From the NCBI GenBank assembly GCA_024402835.1, contig JAKSSZ010000001.1, forward strand, positions 1 to 30,086: a stretch of DNA of 30,086 bases, written 5' to 3'. Position numbers and translations under genes: made by a program. The notes below the pieces were generated by a model. That model saw only the letters and a list, made by a program, of their open reading frames with translations. It searched no databases and was not told the DNA's origin. The stretch comes from Alphaproteobacteria bacterium (lineage in GTDB: Bacteria > Pseudomonadota > Alphaproteobacteria > Rs-D84). How positions within the stretch are numbered: the stretch's first letter is position 1; each line of letters opens with the position of its first letter. Of this stretch, positions 1 to 18,514 are shown piece after piece.

Positions 1-91
1 GGTGCGGGGGGGGGGGGGGGGGGGTTGGTTGGGGGGGGGGGGGGGGTGGGGTGGGGGGGGTGCGTGCGGGGGGGGTGGCGTGCGGGGGGGG
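1..91. other. G-rich low-complexity run, probable sequencing/assembly artefact at the contig end
   Basis: Almost pure G runs that switch abruptly to AT-rich sequence at ~92. Confidence 0.8.
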
Positions 92-138
92 GGATTGAAT
101 TACTTGAAACAATTTGTTGCTTTTACTATGATCTGAAT

Positions 139-354
139 ATGGATAAATTTACGATTGATTTTATCAGAGGAAGAATCGATGAAGCTGTCCAGCAACATCC
201 TGGTGTTCGGGCTTTGAATGTTCCTATTACTGGGAAGCTTTATAATTACATGATTTCATATGATACTGTAAATCGTACGGTCACCGGCGTCGTTTTGCAA
301 CTGAGCCATAATAAACGTAGACCCATAACATTATCTGATATTTTAATTAAATAA
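139..354 (+). CDS. Hypothetical protein (71 aa)
   Basis: ATG at 139 in the non-artefactual part of ORF 25..354; no clear SD; convergent overlap with the next gene. Confidence 0.35.
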   Translation: MDKFTIDFIRGRIDEAVQQHPGVRALNVPITGKLYNYMISYDTVNRTVTGVVLQLSHNKRRPITLSDILIK

Positions 355-1023
355 TGATAGTTGTTTTGGCGGTAAATTGAGTTTGTATTTTCCGTTTTGA
401 TCAGATTTTATGATCCTGCGCCAATATTTATTATGGCTAAAGATGTCTTTGATTCTGTCGGAAGTTGAATCAATATCTTTTAATATTCGCTTACCATACA
501 TCCAAGGATTACCATTTTCTCTTGCTTGCCACAATCGCTTTATAACCTTGGCCTGTTGCTCACCAAACTTGTATTCTTGTCCACACCATATAAAACAAGT
601 AAAATCATCCGAGATCAATTCAAAAGCATTGTCTGTATGCGGTATGTTCCTATAAAGTACCTCAAAGTTCTCTACCTGTTCCATAGGAATTACGAGATCA
701 AAAAAGCCCACAAAAAATGGGGCTTCTAGGATTGTTTTCATATCGTAATTGCCGATATGAGAGATTTCTATTTTTTGGTTTTTATTTTTGAACATCAGAT
801 AAATATAACGATGATCTATATACAGTTTGCTCAATTTCTGCAACAGATCATAACAAGGACCGGCTTGTGATCTTGCCAGCGCAATCTCTATGGCAGCAGG
901 TCGTAGATAGAGCCTTATTTCACCTGTTTCGGCCAAAGCTTCTATTATAGATGTCCTACATTTCCAGCGTTGCGCCAAATCCTCTATATCCAAAAATGCT
1001 ATAGGAAGATTCAGGTCGTTCAT
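343..1023 (-). CDS. Putative DNA-binding protein: N-terminal HTH-like segment, C-terminal winged-helix-like domain, terminal QLSLF motif
   Basis: LDIEDLAQRWKC (Xis/MerR-like); FGEQQAKVIKRLW...PWMYGKRIL...GKYKLNL resembles island-associated wHTH hypotheticals; ends KQLSLFN. Confidence 0.7.
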   Translation of the reverse strand: MNDLNLPIAFLDIEDLAQRWKCRTSIIEALAETGEIRLYLRPAAIEIALARSQAGPCYDLLQKLSKLYIDHRYIYLMFKNKNQKIEISHIGNYDMKTILEAPFFVGFFDLVIPMEQVENFEVLYRNIPHTDNAFELISDDFTCFIWCGQEYKFGEQQAKVIKRLWQARENGNPWMYGKRILKDIDSTSDRIKDIFSHNKYWRRIIKSDQNGKYKLNLPPKQLSLFN

Positions 1024-1045
1024 GGTGTCTCTTTTGTTCGTTGTT

Positions 1046-1083
1046 AAAAAGAAAAAAGGGTTGTTGAAAAATCAACAACTCCT
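1046..1083 (-). terminator. Rho-independent terminator-like hairpin
   Basis: Minus strand GAGTTGTTGA-TTTT-TCAACAACCC followed by TTTTTTCTTTTT. Confidence 0.55.
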
Positions 1084-1203
1084 TTCCTTTATTATAATAG
1101 TAAACAAACTTTTTAGCTTTGCACCATTTTTATTTTTACCTGGTTTGCTTGATTTTTTTATCTGCTGTGTTATAATTTGTGCACTTTCCCCCCCACATAA
1201 GAA

Positions 1204-1464
1204 CTATTTCCTAGGAAACATTTCAACAGGTATGTTTATTCGTATCAATAGCCCTTGTTTTTCTTTTATGATTTGCATCTTTCGTTCTTTGTTGCTTAAG
1301 ACATATTTGGCAGTAAGTTTTTTATTGTCTTTGTTAATCCTGATAAATTGGAACCCTTGTTTCTCACACTCTGCTATCGCTTGTGCATTGTCATTCTTGA
1401 ATTTGTCAGAAACTTTCGCTGCAGCATGCATTACACCTGCCAAATCTTCCTTATAGTCTTTCAT
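1204..1464 (-). CDS. Hypothetical protein (86 aa)
   Basis: ORF in a tightly packed minus-strand operon. Confidence 0.6.
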   Translation of the reverse strand: MKDYKEDLAGVMHAAAKVSDKFKNDNAQAIAECEKQGFQFIRINKDNKKLTAKYVLSNKERKMQIIKEKQGLLIRINIPVEMFPRK

Positions 1465-1627
1465 TGCTTTTTCTTTGTTTTGATTGTTCTTTATATTTTT
1501 GTAGTGCGAATCTTAAACCATCTTCATAGCCCAGCCTATATTCGTTACATTCTTGAACTTTTAGAAATTCATCCTGTTCTTTTTCGGTCTTTTTGATTTC
1601 TTTTTCTAATATCTGTATGTATTTCAT
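1451..1627 (-). CDS. Small hypothetical protein (58 aa, MKYIQILEKEIKK...KSNERL), absent from the ORF track
   Basis: Hand translation; ATG overlaps the upstream TGA (ATGA at 1624-1627); fills the gap in the operon. Confidence 0.6.
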   Translation of the reverse strand: MKYIQILEKEIKKTEKEQDEFLKVQECNEYRLGYEDGLRFALQKYKEQSKQRKSNERL

Positions 1628-1905
1628 TCTTCAGCCCCTATAAATATAATTCCAAACCATTTACGCATCAGATCCATATGCCCTTTATATGATGTTTGTG
1701 CATCTCGTTCTTGGTTGAATTGGGCTTTTTCTTCGGCTGACAGTGCGAGTTCTTGAACCAGGCGATTAGCTACCCCAAACAGATAGAAAACGTTGCCCTG
1801 TGGCCCCTTTGTGTCGATTATTATGCCTGTTGGGTATTTGGCATCAACTGGTTCTTGTTGTTCAGCAAGTTTCAGTTTTTTCAGCAGTGTTTCCTTCGTT
1901 TCCAT
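1624..1905 (-). CDS. Phage-type small hypothetical protein (93 aa)
   Basis: IDTKGPQGNVFYLFG resembles the D.tGPdGNAF motif of small phage proteins (recalled, not searched). Confidence 0.65.
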   Translation of the reverse strand: METKETLLKKLKLAEQQEPVDAKYPTGIIIDTKGPQGNVFYLFGVANRLVQELALSAEEKAQFNQERDAQTSYKGHMDLMRKWFGIIFIGAEE

Positions 1906-2419
1906 GTTTGTTCCTTTTGGTTAATCGTTCTTGTATATAACCCCACACCATTTCAAGTTCTCTGACACTAGTGTGTTCAGAATTAAGCCATATTCCTGGT
2001 GTGGCATATACGGTGTTGTTTTCACAGCCAATAATTTTTCGTATCAAATCTTGTACATTTGGCTTTCTCATTTCGTAATGAATGGCCGCTTTGTATAACA
2101 ATCTTTTATCTATAGACGGTTGTGTTAAAGCATCACCTGTATGCAAACTCCAAAACTCTGCCAGTTTTAATTTATGCAACATGGCTATTTTTATCATAAC
2201 CACTCCAAGCGTTTTTGGTTCTGGACCATCCAACATTTGATCTGCCAAATGCCTACCGGCTTTACTATTTAAAAATTCTATAATTTCATCTTCCGTTTTT
2301 TCTGGGTATAACCCAACCAATCTTTTAACCATTACATCCCAGATGTTGTTGGTTGATTCTTCATCAAATGAATTTTTGATTGTTCCGTAAAAACCAAATT
2401 CTTTATTTATTTCAATCAT
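1862..2419 (-). CDS. Prophage/island-type hypothetical protein (185 aa)
   Basis: FGFYGT...W...IIEFLNSKAGRHLAD resembles a conserved hypothetical family of proteobacterial prophage-like islands. Confidence 0.65.
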   Translation of the reverse strand: MIEINKEFGFYGTIKNSFDEESTNNIWDVMVKRLVGLYPEKTEDEIIEFLNSKAGRHLADQMLDGPEPKTLGVVMIKIAMLHKLKLAEFWSLHTGDALTQPSIDKRLLYKAAIHYEMRKPNVQDLIRKIIGCENNTVYATPGIWLNSEHTSVRELEMVWGYIQERLTKRNKHGNEGNTAEKTETC

Positions 2420-2421
2420 GA

Positions 2422-2673
2422 CTAATCCTCTTGTACTGTTGTGTCAAACTTTATGTCTTCGGATCCTTTAAAATCCTTTGGAATGTCGTAGCCGATCTTA
2501 CGTAATAGGGTTACTATTTCCCTTTCTGTGCGACCGTCTTCAATCCAACAATATGCAGTGCTTTCAGTGATGTATTTAGACCGTAAAGCCTTACAAATTT
2601 TTTCTATCCCTGTGCCGGTGGCTATTTCGTACCCCAGCGCAGCCAGATATATGTTTTTCGTTGGTTTTCTCAT
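2422..2673 (-). CDS. Hypothetical protein (83 aa)
   Basis: ORF ending 2 nt before the next start; operon context. Confidence 0.6.
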   Translation of the reverse strand: MRKPTKNIYLAALGYEIATGTGIEKICKALRSKYITESTAYCWIEDGRTEREIVTLLRKIGYDIPKDFKGSEDIKFDTTVQED

Positions 2674-2739
2674 GTTTTTACCCCTTTGGTTGTGCTGTAC
2701 ATTACCGTAATAAAACGGTATATCCAGTTAATAATTCGC

Positions 2740-4005
2740 TTATTTGCATATGGCCTCCGTTATGTGATTTACCGCCTTAAATGTCCCACTATCCGCATAA
2801 TGTGTATAGTGTTCGGTCGTTGCTAAACGGCTGTGTCCGGCAGCATCTTTGATGGCATTCATGTTTTCGCCCAAGTTGGCCCCCATTGTGATGAATGAAT
2901 GGCGCAGATCGTGTAACCGCATATGGGGCAGTCCAGCATCTTTTAGGATCCATTCAAACGGCTTTCTGATATTATCCACCGGTTTGTCTTTATCAAATAT
3001 CCCAGGGAACACATATTTGCTACCCAGCAATTCGGCTTCTTTCATCGCTATTTCTAATTCCTTAACCGCCGCATCGGACAGCTTTACGTCTCTGGCACCC
3101 GTTTTACTGTCTTTCAAGTGAATCATCTTTTCTGACAGCGATACTTCGTCCATTTCAAGGTCTCGTATTTCTGATCTGCGGCATCCTGTTAAAGCCAATA
3201 CTTTTAATACACGAAACATACGTGGGTGCATTCTTGATCTTGAGGATGCAGTTTCCAACGATTTAAAAAAGCGTTTATAACCATCAAGATCTAATATGGT
3301 CGGTTTGTATGTCGGGTTAGTGCCACGTTTGACATAACCGCACAGGTTGGATCCATGTGGCATGAATCCATATGATTCACACCAATCCCAGAAACTTGAT
3401 ATCAACGACAAGATTTTATTCGCCGTTGAAAAGGATGTCCTTTTTGCCCATTCAGCATAAGCGTCTATCAGGTCTCTTGATTTTATGTCTTGTATAAACT
3501 TTCTGCCGAACAGCGGTTTAATGTATGACCGGTATTGGATAAGATCTGTTTTCTGTGTGCTTGGTTTTTTATGCAACGCACTGTACTTATCAACGTAAAG
3601 CATAAAGGCATCATTGAATACTTGTTTTGTAGAAAACTTTATCAATTCATTTTTTAAGTCGTTTTTCTGCAAAGTTTCAACAGTCGTTTCCATCTGTGCC
3701 GGTTGGGCATCAACTGGTAGGTTTATATTACCCAGCAATACCATTTTGCGCCACTCCTTAGCTCTGGCATACACTTCCTCTACATTCGTAAATTCAGACC
3801 ATTTACCCATAGCTATAATCTTTCTATTACGCATCTGTTTTAGTTTGCACGAGAAGAAAAAACTTATTGTTTTTGTTCTGTAGTAATATCTTAAAAACAG
3901 ACCCGGGATAGTCCCATCTGAAATTTGCATATTCACATCCCCAGTCAGTCGTTCAATCCAACTGTCTTTGAATGCGCGTGTTTTGCATAGCCATTTTTCT
4001 GACAT
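2740..4005 (-). CDS. int: Tyrosine recombinase/integrase with N-terminal arm-binding (DUF4102/P4-like) domain
   Basis: Catalytic motifs LTGCRRSEI (R), DSKTG (K), HDLRH (H-x-x-R), GH and HY; N-terminal DGTIPGLFLR; SD AGAGG; adjacent to att. Confidence 0.95.
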   Translation of the reverse strand: MSEKWLCKTRAFKDSWIERLTGDVNMQISDGTIPGLFLRYYYRTKTISFFFSCKLKQMRNRKIIAMGKWSEFTNVEEVYARAKEWRKMVLLGNINLPVDAQPAQMETTVETLQKNDLKNELIKFSTKQVFNDAFMLYVDKYSALHKKPSTQKTDLIQYRSYIKPLFGRKFIQDIKSRDLIDAYAEWAKRTSFSTANKILSLISSFWDWCESYGFMPHGSNLCGYVKRGTNPTYKPTILDLDGYKRFFKSLETASSRSRMHPRMFRVLKVLALTGCRRSEIRDLEMDEVSLSEKMIHLKDSKTGARDVKLSDAAVKELEIAMKEAELLGSKYVFPGIFDKDKPVDNIRKPFEWILKDAGLPHMRLHDLRHSFITMGANLGENMNAIKDAAGHSRLATTEHYTHYADSGTFKAVNHITEAICK

Positions 4006-4080
4006 GTTTTACCTCTTAGTTTGGTTGCATACAACATGCCTCTAAAAACAGGAACATCCAGTAAAAAGAACGGAAAAAGA

Positions 4081-4275
4081 TCATATCCGATTTTCCTTGC
4101 TTATACGGTCCAACCATGCTAATACGTCCGACTTTCTGTACCTGACCGTATTTTTGCCCATATTGAAATATTTTGGCCCAATTTTCTTCATTCTGAATTT
4201 TGCTATGGTATATGGAGCCAATCCAAGCATCTTCGCAACTTGTCTGGTCGTTAACAAATAATCTTGATCTTGCAT
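4081..4275 (-). CDS. Excisionase/AlpA-like HTH protein (64 aa)
   Basis: LLTTRQVAKMLG...GPKYF...VRYRKSDVLAWL; start reassigned to ATG 4275 with SD AAAGGA; upstream of int. Confidence 0.85.
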   Translation of the reverse strand: MQDQDYLLTTRQVAKMLGLAPYTIAKFRMKKIGPKYFNMGKNTVRYRKSDVLAWLDRISKENRI

Positions 4276-4372
4276 ATTATGTCCTTTGGGTTTTGTTATA
4301 CATTTTGACGATAAAGCCCGGACCATATTTTTTCTAGTCAGAAAAATCCAAAAATTTCCAACTTGTTTTTAT

Positions 4373-4521
4373 GAAATCAGAGTTGAAATCAGCGATGGTT
4401 TTACAGACATCAATTTAGAAATCAGAGCAATAATCAACACTGATATCGGGCTTGAAATCAGATATGAAATCAGCATAGATATCAGACCTGAAATCAGATA
4501 AGAAATCAGGGCAGAAATCAC
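4373..4521. repeat. Array of 12 degenerate GAAATCAG octamers with 12-bp period and variable 4-nt linkers
   Basis: Copies start at 4373, 4385, 4406, 4418, 4430, 4442, 4454, 4466, 4478, 4490, 4502 and 4514. Confidence 0.9.
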
Positions 4522-4661
4522 AATGTGTTTTGTATGCTTAGGGTTGCTTTGATATGATTGTTGAAAAAGATTATAGCTTACCATACATTCAATATGTGTT
4601 AAGTGTCGCAAACCCACAGAATCCGCGGCACACAGCCCGATTATACCAAATTGCCCCTTAG

Positions 4662-4706
4662 CTGTTAATCCGTATGTCACTGGTTCGAGTCCAGTTGCCC
4701 GAGCCA
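4662..4706 (+). tRNA. Partial tRNA-Asn(GTT): 3' half only (anticodon loop to CCA), att junction between elements 1 and 2; not an intact gene
   Basis: CTGTTAA loop, TCCGT, T arm ACTGG-TTCGAGT-CCAGT, acceptor TGCCCGA-G-CCA; upstream sequence cannot form the anticodon stem, D arm or acceptor 5' strand. Confidence 0.88.
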
Positions 4707-4716
4707 CAGATTACAA

Positions 4717-4750: not shown

Positions 4751-4773
4751 CTATATGCTACCTATATGCTACC
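4751..4773. repeat. Tandem 11-bp direct repeat CTATATGCTAC x2, putative integrase arm-type sites
   Basis: Perfect tandem repeat ~45 bp right of the att core; homologous pair at 18495-18514. Confidence 0.65.
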
Positions 4774-5089
4774 AAAAGCGGCTGTTTTTTCACTAAATAT
4801 TTGATATTTTTGAGCATATCAAAAACAACCATATTTTTTACATATTGCCCTGGGAGGGGTGGTGCCCACCATGCGAAATGTGGTTATGGTGTTTTAACTT
4901 ACGCAATGATTTCATTTGACGAATATGATGAACATATCACAAATATTTAATACATATAAATCACACAATGACTTACTGTATGATCAATTGTATACACTAC
5001 AAACATATCGTATTAAAGTGATATTCAATAGTTTTTTGTATATTTTTATCCAATTTTATGTTATAATCTCCTGTAGAGATGGGGAAATC

Positions 5090-5119
5090 TTGACTTTTTA
5101 TATATTTTGTTTTTATACT
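5090..5119 (+). promoter_or_regulatory. Putative sigma70 promoter of Panacea-toxin operon 1
   Basis: TTGACT-18 bp-TATACT, 20 nt upstream of ATG 5140. Confidence 0.5.
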
Positions 5120-5139
5120 TTAACCTAAGTGGTGGAATC

Positions 5140-5649
5140 ATGGCAATAAAATTTAATATGAATACACAAAAGGCAATAGAATCTGTTCTGTGGATCATTC
5201 AGAACGGAGAGTCCAACATGTACAATATTTGGAAGATTTTGTTTTCTGCCGAAAAGTATCATTTGAATAAGTATGGTCGACCAATCACTGGCGATAGATA
5301 TATTGCGATGGAATATGGAACTGTTCCAAGTTGGTTGTATGATGCTTCTAAAATAAAACGTCAAGGATTAGGTTTTTACAGAGATAATAACTCGTTACTT
5401 GCAGAACGCGTTCCTGTTATGGATTATTTTTCAGAAACCGATTTAGAAGCACTGCAACACGGGGTAGCGGAGTATGCGGGACTTGATTTTATAGCTGTTA
5501 GAGACAAAAATCACCAAGAGCCGTGCTGGAAAAAGAATTATGCTATGCGTGGAGATAGCGATAGTGCCCCAATTCCTTTTGAAGATATCATAGAAGAGGA
5601 CTGGCTTCGTGAAGATTTAAAAGTTCTTTCTCATAGCATGGTTTTGTAA
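5140..5649 (+). CDS. Panacea (DUF4065/SocA-like) antitoxin domain protein
   Basis: IWKILFSAEKYHLNKYGRPITGDRYIAMEYGTVPS matches the DUF4065 pattern; start reassigned to ATG 5140 with SD GGTGGA. Confidence 0.85.
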   Translation: MAIKFNMNTQKAIESVLWIIQNGESNMYNIWKILFSAEKYHLNKYGRPITGDRYIAMEYGTVPSWLYDASKIKRQGLGFYRDNNSLLAERVPVMDYFSETDLEALQHGVAEYAGLDFIAVRDKNHQEPCWKKNYAMRGDSDSAPIPFEDIIEEDWLREDLKVLSHSMVL

Positions 5650-5650
5650 T

Positions 5651-6028
5651 ATGGCTGAAATATCAGATGTTTTTGTAATAAATGTTAGAGATAGTAACAT
5701 AAACAATCGAGAAACTAAGCATTGTATTTGTATATCCGTATCAAAAGATAAGTATCTGGTTATTAATACGGAACACCGACAAATGTACGATGATTTTGAA
5801 ATCAAGGCGTCAGATTACCCTTTTTTAAAGGGTAAAGACAGGTTTGTATGTTGTGCATCAGTTCATAAATTTTTACCAGATAGAATTATATCCGAAAGCG
5901 TTGGAAAATTAAAATATCCGGACATGTTGAAAATAATAGAAAAAATCCAAAATTCGAAAATTTTGGATAAAAGTGAAAAAAATGATATTTTGCCGGATTT
6001 AATTGAATGGCAATTAGATAACTCTTAA
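5651..6028 (+). CDS. Putative toxin, PemK/MazF-like fold
   Basis: 1 nt after the Panacea stop; KHCICIS..KYLVINT...YPFLK..DRFV...VGKL pattern is PemK-like (inference). Confidence 0.55.
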   Translation: MAEISDVFVINVRDSNINNRETKHCICISVSKDKYLVINTEHRQMYDDFEIKASDYPFLKGKDRFVCCASVHKFLPDRIISESVGKLKYPDMLKIIEKIQNSKILDKSEKNDILPDLIEWQLDNS

Positions 6029-6075
6029 AGTTTTTCTTTGCAAATTTTTCCCCCAGACATAAGTCTGAGGGTGAT

Positions 6076-6459
6076 TTATTTAAATCCTTTTTGCTGAGCT
6101 TCGTATGAAACCTTGAACTTTTGTTTTGTTATTGGGCCGTTTGGAAACGGGATTTGTGGTGCATCTGCGGTCAAAGATAGGAACAATTTAATTGCTGCCA
6201 TATCCCCGTACAATGCAGATGAAACCAATTGTGCAAGAATCCCATCCATAATGGTTGGATCTTCTATGTGGTACTTGTCTATGAACCTTTTGCGATTATA
6301 ATCGTTGTCAAAAGGCATCGGTGAGCTGGCCATAGAAGCAACCATTTCACGTAATTTTTTACGCTCACGGCGTACTTGACCAGACACCAGGCCACCAATC
6401 TGGCCGAGTTCTCGGGCTTCGTTCGGGCTTAATACTCTCAAATTCTGTTCATTTGCCAT
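6076..6459 (-). CDS. Terminase-small-subunit-like / KGG-type phage protein
   Basis: MANEQNL...EARELGQIGGLVSGQVRRERKKLRE...ALYGDMAAIK resembles proteins found upstream of terL; SD AGGAGG. Confidence 0.6.
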   Translation of the reverse strand: MANEQNLRVLSPNEARELGQIGGLVSGQVRRERKKLREMVASMASSPMPFDNDYNRKRFIDKYHIEDPTIMDGILAQLVSSALYGDMAAIKLFLSLTADAPQIPFPNGPITKQKFKVSYEAQQKGFK

Positions 6460-6470
6460 TTGTTGCCTCC

Positions 6471-8489
6471 TTAGTATGGTAAGTCATCAAGTGTGACATT
6501 GTGACAATCGGCAGTATTACAGGTGTTTTCTGTCACGGTGTCACAACTGGAAACAGGTATGTAACGTTTGAAGGTATCATCAAAATCTGACAGATAATAC
6601 TTTCTGCTTCTGTCATCAACCCCTTCCCTGGTCTGCCTTGGAAATATTCCAAAAAACTTCAATTGGCGTGCCAGTGCACTTGGAGACATTTGGCGGCCTT
6701 TGTTCCATTCAGGCCAAGGGCTGGTTTCTATCTTGTTCAATTCTTCCACCAAATCATTAGAAGCCATCCACCCTTTTGGAACATTCTGTAATATACCCTT
6801 TATGTCTATTAACAATTGGACTCTCACAGAATTTTCATCGTTACTGCTGTCACTTTTAATCAATTTTAAAATAGCAGTTTCCAATCTGTCGTGCCATTCT
6901 GGGGATATTGCATCCGATATCGCAAACAGGATTTCAGATACATCAGCGGTTCTGTCATTTAATGCACTGGGGACATTTGGGGTACCGTCCACTATTTCTT
7001 GTTCGTGATCCATAATGAAGCGTTTGCATTTACTACGCAATTTGTTCATTTCCTGATGCACCTGCCGATAACGCAATTTTTCTATTTTGTCTGCGAGTGT
7101 CTTGCGTTTCATAGTGATTGTGAGGCTGCGATCTTTAACGGTTGTTGGTATATTTCCAATGGCAGCAATTGCACAGGGTGCAAAACAATCAAATAGCTTT
7201 GGTTTCATACTGCGACCATTTGTTTCGGTACACATAATTTTTTTACCACGTTGGAAACCAGAGTTCAGCACTTTGCACAATGTATCATTGTCATTGTCCA
7301 GATACCTATCTGCTTCATCAGCCAATAGTGTGATTGTGCCCTTTTGTATTGTGATCATTCTTGCCATAGATGGGCCTGTGATACTGGACACCTGTAGCGG
7401 TTTATAACACAGATATTCCAGTATATCCAAAAATGTGGTTTTTCCACATCTGGGTTCTGGGCTGTGAATAAACAACCTTGGTGTGAATACATAATCTCTC
7501 AAGATATATGTATGCAATATCCACATTACAGATACTTCCGCGGCACCGTCTGGCAGATACACATATTTTTTGATCGTGTTAACAAGATCGTTTGCCAGCG
7601 CAGTTCCATCAACCGGCTCTGGCCATGGTGTGACATCCGGCAACAAAAAATCTTCTTGATTGCTACCTGCCCCACGCCATTTTGCTGTAATTTGTGCCAA
7701 AGCCAAGTCAGAACCACTCAATTTGGTACCCGCTGAATTTACACGTACAAAAATCTCTGTTACTTCTTCATAAGACAAATTCTTTAATTCAACGATATCA
7801 AATACATCTTCGTTACTTAGAACATTCCTTAACGTTGTAAGTCTTGTGTTATATTTTTTTATATTAGGATCATCTAACTTGAAACCGTTTTCTTCTAAGA
7901 ATGTCAGATTATCTTTAGATTTGAAAAAGTCTTTCAAGGACACCCAATTCTTTTGACTATCAAAATTAGGATCTCCTGCAACCATAAATGTTCTGTCTTT
8001 ATTGTCTTTTACTTCATCCTCGTCTTCTTCCTCTTGATCATCGTCTGCATCCGTAACGGCTTCAATTACATTGTCATCAGGGATTTCTTGTTCAATAAGT
8101 CCTTCTGGATGATCAAGATTGAAAATAATATCAATTTCTTTTGTTTTTTTTCCTTTGCCCTTTACTTCTACTTTTTGACCAGTCAGCAATTTACACAATG
8201 AAGTCAATCTTTGCTGGCCGTCTAGTAACAACAAGTAATTTGATTGGTCTGACACCTCTGATTTTACGTTCAAATCAAAATCACGCGTTTGTATGTTTTC
8301 AAGATCCTTGCTATCTGGACGCCACATTAACAAACTACCCACCGGATAACCACGGTATAAAGAATCTATAAAATCACGAACTTTTGTTGCCTTCCATACA
8401 TAACCGCGTTGCATTTCTGGTAATCGAATACTTTGTTCCGCGGTAACCATCTTGACCAATTCATTTATGCTGTGTTTTATCCTTCCCAT
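6471..8489 (-). CDS. Chimeric protein: N-terminal DUF262 (GmrS/ParB-like) fused to a DUF3631-type P-loop replication protein
   Basis: aa 1-~275: LPEMQRGYVW, LLDGQQRLT, IFVRVNSAGTKL; after ~aa 280: PWPEPVDG, SPEPRCGKTT (Walker A), LLADEAD (Walker B), C-terminal PWPEWNKG..LARQLKFFGI. Confidence 0.8.
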   Translation of the reverse strand: MGRIKHSINELVKMVTAEQSIRLPEMQRGYVWKATKVRDFIDSLYRGYPVGSLLMWRPDSKDLENIQTRDFDLNVKSEVSDQSNYLLLLDGQQRLTSLCKLLTGQKVEVKGKGKKTKEIDIIFNLDHPEGLIEQEIPDDNVIEAVTDADDDQEEEDEDEVKDNKDRTFMVAGDPNFDSQKNWVSLKDFFKSKDNLTFLEENGFKLDDPNIKKYNTRLTTLRNVLSNEDVFDIVELKNLSYEEVTEIFVRVNSAGTKLSGSDLALAQITAKWRGAGSNQEDFLLPDVTPWPEPVDGTALANDLVNTIKKYVYLPDGAAEVSVMWILHTYILRDYVFTPRLFIHSPEPRCGKTTFLDILEYLCYKPLQVSSITGPSMARMITIQKGTITLLADEADRYLDNDNDTLCKVLNSGFQRGKKIMCTETNGRSMKPKLFDCFAPCAIAAIGNIPTTVKDRSLTITMKRKTLADKIEKLRYRQVHQEMNKLRSKCKRFIMDHEQEIVDGTPNVPSALNDRTADVSEILFAISDAISPEWHDRLETAILKLIKSDSSNDENSVRVQLLIDIKGILQNVPKGWMASNDLVEELNKIETSPWPEWNKGRQMSPSALARQLKFFGIFPRQTREGVDDRSRKYYLSDFDDTFKRYIPVSSCDTVTENTCNTADCHNVTLDDLPY
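6492..6545. repeat. Paired heptamers TGTGACA x2 facing TGTCAC(G/A) x2, ori-like inverted repeat
   Basis: 6492 and 6500 (TGTGACA), 6531 and 6539 (inverted); arms match at 13 of 15 nt. Confidence 0.7.
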
Positions 8490-8713
8490 AGTAAATACCT
8501 TTGTTTTATTTGCGTCTCGTAAGTATTATATCCTATAATTGCAGAAAAAACAACCCGTTATGACCAGCAAGGTTGTGATACTGCAAGATTTATGGGTAAG
8601 CAAGAATTGTACGAAACATCAATCTACGAAGCCCATCTGGACCTTTTACGCACCTGGTTCGGGGTTGAGTTTGTTCGAGGGTTAGATTTAAAAGATACCT
8701 TTTGTGCTTTTTA

Positions 8714-8742
8714 TTGACTTTTTGTATAAATTATGGTATAAT
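8714..8742 (+). promoter_or_regulatory. Near-consensus sigma70 promoter upstream of Panacea-toxin operon 2
   Basis: TTGACT-17 bp-TATAAT with extended -10 TG; a second TGtTATAAT has its -10 at 8846-8851. Confidence 0.7.
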
Positions 8743-8877
8743 ACCCAACATGAGCAGCAGGATGTTTTTTGTTGCTTTTTTTATTTTTTAGTTCTATTTT
8801 TCCAAAAAATCAATTTTATGCTTTTATAATCCTAGTAAGTTATGTTATAATTGCACTGAACCGAAAGAGAAAACATC

Positions 8878-9342
8878 ATGTGTCAGAAAACACGGCAACT
8901 TTTGGCGCTTATTTTGCGCGATGGTCCACGAGGAGTTACTAGTTTGTTAAAAATATCATATCTAATTGACCTGGCAGCTATTCGTAATATAGGGTATCAA
9001 ATATCAGAATTTAAATATATTCGTTGGAATTTTGGTCCGTTTGATAGCGCAATATACAAAAATCTAGAAAATATGCGAGAAGAAGGGATTATTTCTGCTG
9101 ATTCGCAATTTATTGGTACAGATGAACATGTAATTTACAAGCTTAAAGATCCAGATTTAGTCGCTGCAAATTCTTTGACGCCTCAAGAACAAGACCTTGT
9201 TACAGAAATGCCTCAGCATTTACAAGGTTTTGGGGCAAAAACCTTGACAGAAGTTGCATACAACAGAAAACCAATGACATCCATTGGTGCTAAGCTTGGT
9301 GGTACAGAACACATGGGCGAATTTTTAAATATGCATGCTTAA
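8878..9342 (+). CDS. Panacea (DUF4065/SocA-like) antitoxin domain protein
   Basis: LLKISYLID...YIRWNFGPFDSAIY is the DUF4065 signature. Confidence 0.85.
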   Translation: MCQKTRQLLALILRDGPRGVTSLLKISYLIDLAAIRNIGYQISEFKYIRWNFGPFDSAIYKNLENMREEGIISADSQFIGTDEHVIYKLKDPDLVAANSLTPQEQDLVTEMPQHLQGFGAKTLTEVAYNRKPMTSIGAKLGGTEHMGEFLNMHA

Positions 9343-9838
9343 TAAATTTGAATATTTTCAGCCATTTTGGTGTTACGTTGATGAACAATCCTTAGAAGAA
9401 TCTACAGGGGTTTGCAAACGCAAATATAAGCTATGTGTGGGGGTTATGCCTTTTATCAGCGAAGTTTTGTACTTCTTTGTGTCTACATCTAAAAACTCTA
9501 CCAACCCAAACCTGACCTTTTATGTCGATGAAAATGAATGGCTTAATTTGGTCGAGAAAGGCAAATACTTGAAAGGCAGAGCAAATTTTGATATAAGAAG
9601 GATTGTTAACGAAAGCAAGGATCTTTTAACCCAAAAATTTAAAGCCGGACAAATTGCTTGCGTTGCTCGCTTACCTGATATAAAAAAATTTTTTATAAAA
9701 CGGTGTTTTGATAATTTACACAAAAATCAGAATTTATCACCACATGAGCAAAAAAATCTAAAACAAATTGGGGATTTACTCCCTGATGCTATACTTTCGC
9801 AGGAAGCCCGTAGCTTTATTGCACATTTCAATATTTAA
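9335..9838 (+). CDS. Putative toxin, possibly PemK-like
   Basis: 8-nt overlap with the Panacea gene; KYKLCV...LYFFVST...YLKGRANFD pattern parallels 5651..6028. Confidence 0.5.
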   Translation: MLNKFEYFQPFWCYVDEQSLEESTGVCKRKYKLCVGVMPFISEVLYFFVSTSKNSTNPNLTFYVDENEWLNLVEKGKYLKGRANFDIRRIVNESKDLLTQKFKAGQIACVARLPDIKKFFIKRCFDNLHKNQNLSPHEQKNLKQIGDLLPDAILSQEARSFIAHFNI

Positions 9839-18430: not shown

Positions 18431-18448
18431 TCCAGTTGCCCGAGCCAC
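18431..18448 (+). repeat. att core: 18-bp copy of the tRNA-Asn 3' end, junction between elements 2 and 3
   Basis: TCCAGTTGCCCGAGCCAC, identical to 4690-4707. Confidence 0.9.
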
Positions 18449-18457
18449 GAATTCCAA

Positions 18458-18485
18458 GGGATTCAGCAGAATCCCTTTTCTTTTT
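18458..18485 (+). terminator. Rho-independent terminator after the second att core
   Basis: GGGATTC-AGCA-GAATCCC followed by TTTTCTTTTT; stem homologous to 4717-4734. Confidence 0.85.
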
Positions 18486-18494
18486 ACTTTGGTG

Positions 18495-18514
18495 TTTGCT
18501 ACCTATTTGCTACC
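18495..18514. repeat. TTTGCTACC x2 at 11-bp spacing, putative integrase arm-type sites
   Basis: Same position and spacing relative to the core as 4751-4773. Confidence 0.65.

Follow-up and report, generated by a model that had tools for sequence, protein, structure and literature searches.

The window analyzed here is a stretch of 30,086 nucleotides from an alphaproteobacterial genome assembly (GCA_024402835.1; contig JAKSSZ010000001.1, positions 1 to 30,086). Within it lie the integrase gene (int) and an excisionase-like gene (xis) of a prophage, then a row of short direct repeats and then the phage attachment (att) site, and it is this row of repeats with which we are concerned (Table 1). 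The array is real, its octamers are under selection, its position is conserved and it covaries with a second array, found inside a gene of the same phage.

By reading the sequence, we found 12 octamers on the plus strand, starting at positions 4373, 4385, 4406, 4418, 4430, 4442, 4454, 4466, 4478, 4490, 4502 and 4514. Seven of these are GAAATCAG, with GATATCAG, GACATCAA, ATAATCAA, GATATCGG and GAAATCAC each being present once. Ten of the 11 intervals are of 12 bp and one (4385 to 4406) is of 21 bp, such that two copies (4373-4392) are set apart from the other ten (4406-4521), and the ten 4-nt linkers are all different and unrelated. The same copies, intervals and linkers had been listed in an earlier note made from this sequence, which had also placed the array between the Xis gene and att; this placement is right, with 140 bp separating the array from the att core. 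An iteron cluster of a phage or plasmid replicon was taken to have at least three direct copies of one short motif at a fixed period, and here there are 12 copies at a period of 12 bp. TRF likewise reported arrays of period 12, 24 and 36 that span 4418-4520. The exact motif GAWATCAG is present nine times in the 30-kb window, always within the array (2.26 +/- 1.54 expected), and none of 100 shuffles reached nine. In a scan of the 802-kb assembly, the octamer doublet pattern did not occur outside the array, and in a search of a wider collection of genome contigs with the last base relaxed, the matches listed were mostly perfect coding or microsatellite repeats with identical linkers.

Table 1 Features of the att-proximal end of the prophage, in window coordinates.
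Feature	Position	Strand	Remarks
Early prophage genes orf226 (343-1023), orf86, orf58, orf93, orf185, orf83	94..2673	-	conserved order in homologues
Small gene	139-354	+	within conserved early prophage region
P4-type tyrosine integrase (int)	2740..4005	-	Phage_integrase 1.3e-21, PHROG 1; homologues have Arm-DNA-bind_3
Xis-like HTH_17 (excisionase-family) gene	4081..4275	-	Pfam HTH_17 4.3e-9, PHROG 66 excisionase/regulator
Putative -10 hexamer TATAAC of xis-int promoter	4295..4300	-	by eye; no good -35
Imperfect palindrome TTTTCT-AGTC-AGAAAA	4330..4345	.	between xis start and repeats
'Type II' xis-proximal 10-bp direct repeats x2, AAAAATCCAA and AAATTTCCAA	4342..4361	+	read from sequence
Type I iteron array	4373..4521	+	12 octamers, consensus tGAAATCAG, 12-bp period, one 21-bp step
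Remaining P arm, 140 bp	4522..4661	.	includes conserved box CCCACAGAATCCGCGG at 4613-4628
att core, 3' part of tRNA-Asn(GTT), anticodon loop to CCA	4662..4707	+	contigs of other runs cease matching here

The region is the att-proximal early end of a temperate phage integrated at tRNA-Asn and not a small island, because longer homologous contigs continue the same gene order into replication and packaging genes. All eight minus-strand genes from 343 to 4326 recur in metagenomic contigs with their order unchanged. The minus-strand early-gene order is the same in L192-L199, L204-L207, L210 and L222-L229 (L numbers denote the loci compared), where replication and packaging genes come next, and the onward order in the longer contigs is a small divergent gene, a second HTH_17 gene, a gene for a protein of 136-151 aa (orf151), a DUF6291-like gene of ~200 aa, DUF6362, ParB-methylase, TerS, GpA-type TerL, portal and protease. 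One such locus, L222, which comes from an 88.5-kb contig and is 97-98% identical to positions 94-4712 of the window, was taken as the complete version of the phage. Judging from the source names of the DUF6291-like homologues, the hosts are probably uncultured gut or rumen Alphaproteobacteria. We also considered a satellite of ~5 kb (bases 1-4707) that mimics the DUF1376 origin of a helper; this idea was dropped, as the complete homologous contigs are full prophages with a DUF6291-like gene of their own.

As the tRNA fragment comes after the array, the latter lies in the P arm of attR. There is no complete tRNA in the window, where ARAGORN and Rfam gave no matches and the sequence that resembles a tRNA 3' end is no more than a fragment; contig C87 of the same assembly carries a complete tRNA-Asn(GTT), and a shorter copy of the tRNA-end repeat lies at 18431-18460. 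In other gut and faecal runs, there are contigs with relatives of positions 94-4700 and without DNA past 4846, their matches ending at 4662-4702. This fits a mobile unit that ends at the tRNA fragment, although it should be noted that contigs of public runs and contig depths cannot reveal replication or excision.

To describe substitutions in the array, we used L203 as a comparison copy, its integrase fragment being 89% identical to that of the window. The two arrays differ at only 2 of 96 octamer positions and at 11 of 44 linker positions (Fisher p = 5e-5). In the neighboring non-coding DNA, 10 of 97 positions differ between xis and the array and 19 of 140 in the rest of the P arm. By eye, L222 shows no difference from the window over the 149-bp array. 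These counts indicate that the octamers are selected and that the linkers are free. A pattern of eight conserved and four free positions points to a row of short protein-binding sites, rather than to codons or slippage. The earlier note had indeed proposed a protein-binding array and a comparison of codon-like with motif-like substitutions; the substitutions proved to be motif-like, and its proposal is strongly supported by the conserved octamers, by the drifting linkers and by the presence of an array at the same position in every related phage examined. A CRISPR array was ruled out, as 8-bp repeats with 4-nt linkers stand against repeats of at least 20 bp with spacers of similar length; the linkers are, as had been noted, far too short to be spacers.

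A search beside homologous integrases, which had also been suggested, revealed the order xis, repeat array, 130-200 bp and tRNA-Asn fragment in every integrase homologue with upstream sequence, with a complete tRNA-Asn replacing the 3' fragment in L198 and L068. The arrays themselves are of several types. L203 carries the array of the window with altered linkers, L192/L204 have seven to eight degenerate GAAATYRG copies, L199/L210 five copies of TGATTTCA-ATAT, L225/L226 five of CGATTTCG and L220 four or five of TTATTT(A/C)A, the last four types all at 12 bp. Eight copies of TTTATCAC in L198/L212 and four of TTTATCRCT in L196/L229 are, in turn, spaced at 10 bp. It thus seems that the position upstream of xis needs some coated repeat array and that two repeat classes can serve it.

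Several other observations concern this att side. The complete tRNA-Asn that adjoins xis-int in L068:6830-7372 (G022) and in L198 has its own promoter, and in L068 a 3' fragment follows ~240 bp past the complete tRNA, such that this locus may be a collapsed mini-element. The box in the remaining P arm of the window, CCCACAGAATCCGCGG, takes the form (A/T)TTTCTGCGG in the homologues L192-L202 and L220, as well as in L068 and L065, where it lies ~35-60 bp upstream of the att core, often within the palindrome CCGCAGAWWTCTGCGG; it may be a site for integrase, Xis or a host factor. Downstream of a 50%-identical integrase in L065:6300-7850 (G002 contig 8), there are several tandem modules, each with its own 12-bp-period array (ACGATATCGTAT, GATTTCAGATAT, TAGCGATATAGC), with inverted repeats of the GTGCGCAC type and with a common CGCTCGCCGTTACCC end.

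The repeat of the att-side array was also found at the putative initiator gene of the phage, in L222 and also in L204, L210, L220, L224 and L226. In L222, the DUF6291-like gene contains 12 units at a 12-bp period, ~5.3 kb from the att-side array and in inverted relative orientation; in order, these are GAAATCAG, GATATCAG, GAAATCAG, TAAATCGG, GAAATCAG, GAAACCAG, GATATCAG, GATGTCAG, GGAATCAG, GATATCAG, AATTTCAA and GATTTCAG, followed by a 60-bp stretch of 82% AT. Across 16.7 kb of L222, there are nine exact GAWATCAG copies in the att-side array and six in the gene, with two others outside both. The arrays in the corresponding genes of other phages comprise six units followed by an AT-rich run in L204, five in L210, and five to six in both L033/L215 and L220. 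From this arrangement, the array in the DUF6291-like gene is a probable replication origin in the style of lambda O. AlphaFold2 (AF2) predicts two confident helical domains for the DUF6291-like protein, connected by a disordered linker (residues 75-133) that the repeats and the AT-rich run encode. The L212 protein matches DUF6291 at 29.2 bits, above a cut-off of 27.2 bits, and other family members fall below the cut-off. In the protein collection, the DUF6291-like family comprises 115 clusters, and no cluster name is informative.

In IMG/VR, three GAWATCAG motifs at 12-bp spacing were found in 41 contigs, as compared with fewer than 0.01 matches expected by chance, an expectation estimated from the information content of the pattern and an assumed collection size. 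About 25 of the 41 matches (loci L019-L058, e.g. L036:3830-4570) have three to five GAAATCAG units at a 12-bp period, with variable linkers, inside a DUF1376 gene, and there the arrays are followed by AACCAAG/AACCAAT repeats, again a lambda-O-like in-gene layout. A DnaB-like helicase is encoded two genes downstream of the DUF1376 gene in L042. No convincing HTH_17 gene was found in the fetched DUF1376 loci. Another of the matches, L033, is a relative of the phage of the window, with a 52%-identical integrase and its array in a ~200-aa gene upstream of DUF6362.

When both arrays of each phage were compared, their motifs were seen to change together. The window and L222 combine 12 att-side copies of tGAWATCAG with 12 in-gene units of the GAWATCAG type, L204 combines seven to eight copies of GAAATYRG with six of GAWATCAG, and L224 six degenerate copies with three of GAAATCAS. 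In L210, five copies of TGATTTCA are paired with five of TGAWWTCA, in L226 five of CGATTTCG with four of CGAWATCG, and in L220 four to five of TTATTTMA with five to six of TTAAATCA/TTATTTCA. The motif changes are thus parallel in three lineages, the two exceptions being lineages with a different, 10-bp array. In a matrix of k-mer spectra, the in-gene array of the same phage was the best match for four of the six att-side arrays, the two misses being degenerate arrays of the common motif class. The trace of this matrix was reached by 1 of 720 permutations at both k = 7 and k = 8, a result that should be taken as supportive rather than as a strict probability, as it concerns six related lineages and includes the linkers. 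The parallel switch of the flanks in both arrays (T..A to C..G, and TGA to TTA) is hard to explain unless one protein, or two co-evolving ones, reads both. Copy numbers of the two arrays are also similar within each phage, which fits a pairing of the arrays without proving it.

The DNA between the array and xis contains further elements. The probable start of the xis-like gene is the ATG at 4275, after AAAGGA, and its longest open reading frame (ORF) extends to 4326. The putative -10 hexamer of the xis-int promoter is retained in L192 and L203 (TGTATAAC/CGTATAAC) and was missed by a consensus promoter scan. Relative to this candidate promoter, the array extends from approximately -86 to -234, the order upstream being, by eye, -10 hexamer, palindrome, 10-bp repeats and array. 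Part of the palindrome, TTTTCTAGnnAGAAA, is conserved in L192/L204, L196, L199 and L203, and the palindrome may serve the xis-int promoter as an operator or activator site. Pairs of 10-bp repeats similar to those of the window are found in L203, L200, L201, L224 and L210, and this repeat class (AAAWWTCCAA / TTTATCRC) is expanded to four to eight copies in L196/L229 and L198/L212, where the 12-bp array is missing. A strong sigma-70-like match (TTAACA-17-TATAAT with TG) on the minus strand, from 4668 to 4640, points through the array to xis. As its -35 element is the reverse complement of the tRNA anticodon loop, this match straddles the att junction; it is not conserved in the homologues, and we placed no reliance on it.

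Considering all of the above, we find it probable that the array is an auxiliary cluster of 12 iterons for a protein that also recognizes the probable origin of the phage, set in the P arm of attP (attR in the prophage) upstream of xis-int. Iterons were among the options of the earlier note and fit best, as the same octamer and period are found in the origin-like array inside the gene and as both arrays covary across lineages; its parS-like option gained no support. Both the binder and the effect of binding are what we infer from comparing sequences. The DUF6291-like protein is favored as the binder by the repeats in its own gene and by the DUF1376 phages, an independent group that shares octamer and period without a convincing HTH_17 gene in the loci fetched. 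Covariation of candidate proteins with the motifs (Xis, the second HTH_17 protein and the N-terminal domain of the initiator) singles out no binder, with Xis and HTH_17 being variable everywhere and the N-terminal domain nearly invariant.

In the mechanism that we propose, induction would lead to expression of the replication operon (second HTH_17, orf151 and initiator), and the origin-binding protein, most likely the DUF6291-like initiator, would load on both the in-gene origin and the att-side array. Twelve sites at 12 bp would then give a continuous protein coat that winds round the helix by ~51 degrees per site. Such a coat may switch xis-int transcription, or may stiffen or bend the distal P arm and so shape attR, tying excision to the commitment to replicate. 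It may also loop to, or form a synapse with, the inverted array in the gene, and in this way serve the origin as a crr-like or handcuffing partner. As the lineages with 10-bp arrays keep their in-gene iterons, we put a local role (xis-int control or attR architecture) first and pairing with the origin second. The location of the array beside the excision and integration genes suggests a link between phage replication and excision. That the replication initiator itself doubles as a recombination regulator or architectural factor, with excision or a block to re-integration depending on initiator level and with the module being interchangeable in sister lineages, is a speculative extension that we hold to be rather unlikely, yet if true, it would couple the commitment to replicate directly, at the molecular level, to excision.

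The auxiliary-iteron reading has several points against it that need to be considered, beyond the limits already given for the permutation test. L198/L212 and L196/L229 have only a 10-bp TTTATCRC array on the att side, with in-gene iterons that stay GAWWTCA at 12 bp; because these two lineages replace the array and yet keep the in-gene iterons, the att-side 12-bp array can be dispensed with and is not tied to the origin in a simple way. Across phages with differing iteron flanks, the DUF6291-like protein has a nearly invariant N-terminal domain, and the binding specificity would thus reside in few residues or in another protein. The relation between the DUF6291-like and DUF1376 sets, to which hhalign assigned a probability of 92.8%, owes part of its score to a low-complexity stretch encoded by the iterons themselves, and a Foldseek search of the PDB with the AF2 model of the putative initiator gave no meaningful structural match. 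Finally, the initiator gene is not in this metagenome-assembled genome (MAG), the contig of which breaks inside the prophage, such that function in this genome is inferred via L222. Neither a DUF1376 nor an orf206 homologue was found in the MAG, which is 82% complete, and as the contig break lies inside the prophage, absence is not established.

The repeats could instead be read by the HTH_17 Xis protein, which, as a recombination directionality factor (RDF), would polymerize head-to-tail along the 12 sites, thereby bending the P arm and autoregulating xis-int, with its HTH_17 paralogue, the gene of which lies two genes upstream of the DUF6291-like one, binding the in-gene array. Tandem RDF sites at two loci are established for Cox of P2 and Apl of 186. 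Here too, the array adjoins xis within the P arm and each phage has two paralogous HTH_17 proteins, one encoded near each array; moreover, motif classes differ in the recognition-helix region of Xis, which the three GAWATCAG lineages have in common, and in the two lineages whose in-gene motifs are altered, the second HTH_17 protein shows changes of K to Q or K to R. This correlation is, however, anecdotal, given that both proteins are highly variable (35-66% identity even within one motif class) and that the Xis proteins of the two 10-bp TTTATCRC lineages have no common distinctive helix. Octamer and period also occur in the genes of DUF1376 phages, for which HTH_17 was not convincingly found, after the in-gene array comes an AT-rich stretch of the kind typical for origins and, at 141-289 bp from the core, the att-side array is at or beyond the usual reach of an intasome arm. 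An RDF filament is thus an unlikely explanation, in our view. An initiator would also be the binder if the array were a second true, oriR-like origin or an initiator-bound replication-fork barrier, with no role in xis-int. Iterons and copy number do equal those of the in-gene origin (12 and 12 in L222), the 46-bp stretch on the xis side of the array (4327-4372) is of 78% AT, as compared to 64% for the whole window, and SPP1 offers a precedent in which both oriL and oriR are bound by gp38 (PMC6316719). An AT-rich unwinding element beside the repeats would be required of an origin and not of an auxiliary cluster. The flank on the xis side is much weaker than that of the in-gene array (78% versus 82% over a longer run) and overlaps the xis promoter, an unrelated 10-bp array substitutes in two lineages that keep the in-gene origin, and the conserved position directly upstream of xis points to a local role, all of which makes a second origin improbable.

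The 12-bp period might also recall the arm-type sites bound by the N-terminal domain of a P4-type integrase, as the arm repeats of P4 are tandem 12-bp units, the integrase homologues have Arm-DNA-bind_3 and the array is in the P arm. Such sites, however, come in pairs in P4 and not in dozens, as compared with the 12 copies here, the motif is arrayed within a replication-type gene as well, including in phages where no link to an integrase is seen, and other candidate motifs (TATGCT-like) lie nearer to the core; we therefore give this explanation very little weight. Arm-type sites would be expected on both the P and P' arms, and the P' arm of this prophage lies outside the window. Least credible of all is a small repetitive peptide (LISx repeats on the minus strand or EIRx repeats on the plus strand) or neutral slippage. 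A minus-strand ORF of 112 aa (4369-4707) and a plus-strand ORF of 71 aa do run across the array, and the minus-strand frame is open in L203 too. Neither ORF has Pfam matches, and we rejected a coding role, including the Leu-Ile-Ser peptide that the earlier note had offered as an alternative, because the minus-strand ORF begins inside the tRNA fragment and because no frame across the arrays of the distant homologues L204, L210 and L220 exceeds 64 codons from stop to stop; the 8+4 pattern of substitutions is, in addition, not codon-like. As for slippage, the argument made earlier from divergent linkers at a fixed period holds, as linkers are identical in the genuine slippage or coding repeats that the same pattern brought up.

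The remainder of the contig provided some additional observations. Positions 1-93 are poly-G or G-rich homopolymer-like junk, most likely a sequencing or assembly artefact, such that the contig ends inside the prophage; this contig (C1) is the sole one in the assembly with a G-rich homopolymer end. In run X1, probably the source sample, the word depth given by the assembler was somewhat higher for prophage positions 94-3700 (9.2) than for the downstream host DNA at 4800-9000 (5.5-9.6, mostly 5.8-8), which is a weak difference and not a measure of copy number. Tandem 11-bp repeats (CTATATGCTAC x2, TTTGCTACC x2) are found at 4751-4773 and 18485-18510, past the terminator that follows each tRNA-Asn fragment, and look like P'-arm integrase sites of the next elements in a tandem array. 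Positions 4708-30086 form a defence-rich island, with two Panacea antitoxin pairs, a GmrSD_N-DUF3631 fusion, restriction-modification, Fic, a resolvase, a UvrD-PD-(D/E)XK helicase-nuclease and a sacsin-like HATPase.

What appears to be new is that the attP arm carries a full-size copy of the origin iterons, upstream of xis-int, in uncultured gut phages with initiator families of unknown function. In the literature on DUF1376, DUF6291 and YdaU, we found no paper describing such origins or an att-side copy. The results support a working function for DUF6291 and its distant relative DUF1376, namely that of phage initiators which bind an origin inside their own gene, and define a recognizable grammar of sites (a GAWWTC core, an 8-bp site and a 12-bp period). 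The layout offers a route by which replication and excision could be coordinated, and such arrays could help to find origins and att-side control regions when uncultured prophages are annotated.

Several known systems share part of this arrangement. Plasmid loci, such as incA of P1, with 9 iterons, and incC of F, are extra iteron arrays outside the origin that bind the same initiator, and their array sizes are comparable; they are, however, copy-number control loci beside the rep gene, with no known link to site-specific recombination. Arrays for Xis, Cox or Apl filaments, the closest match for an RDF filament, are also tandem direct repeats at about one helical turn, in the P arm by the excisionase gene and overlapping or adjoining a promoter, yet the known ones comprise 3-7 sites, spaced at 10-11 bp and no further than ~150 bp from the core, as compared with 12 sites at 12 bp, located 141-289 bp away and sharing their motif with an origin-like array. 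In the lambda ori, iterons and then an AT-rich element lie inside the initiator gene O. In the partner array of the DUF6291-like gene, too, an AT-rich stretch comes after the iterons, both being located where the putative initiator gene encodes the linker. This likeness concerns only the partner array; lambda has iterons of ~19 bp, rather than 8 bp at a 12-bp period, and is not known to have a second iteron cluster at attP. The putative origin of the Francisella phage KIRK also consists of iterons and then an AT-rich element within the initiator gene (PMC7924643). For an in-gene origin with a second site for the same protein, SPP1 oriL/oriR is the closest match, as direct repeats together with an AT-rich element lie within the gene of the origin-binding protein and a second repeat set is found elsewhere in the genome; gp38 binds oriL inside gene 38 and also oriR, for which a role as a fork block that sets off the theta-to-sigma switch has been proposed (PMC6316719). 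SPP1, however, is virulent and has no att site, and its oriR, with a clear unwinding element, is among late genes, whereas the second array here lies in the attP arm by xis-int.

For octamer iterons in two clusters, one of which is beside attP, the closest match is the crr of phage P4, and P4 is the only phage for which we found origin repeats duplicated beside attP to be described. P4 has an integrase of the same type and an 8-bp initiator-binding repeat that forms two clusters separated by ~5 kb, the first being at the origin and the second near the attP core. The P4 record (NC_001609) places the core at 4078-4097, crr at 4291-4590 and ori at 9086-9809. It also shows int and tandem 12-bp arm repeats, and of the 8-bp 'ori type 1 repeats' it annotates, ten are in crr, at a distance of ~200 bp from the attP core, and six are at ori. 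The P4 iterons (TGTTCACC) occur in both orientations with irregular spacing, within two 120-bp repeats, while here 12 direct copies keep strictly to a 12-bp period. In P4, the initiator is the alpha primase-helicase, rather than a small DUF6291-like protein (the putative initiator here) with the origin in its own gene, and the array here is dispensable in some lineages. While crr lies on the side of the core that faces away from int, the array described here is found on the side of xis-int, immediately upstream of the xis promoter.

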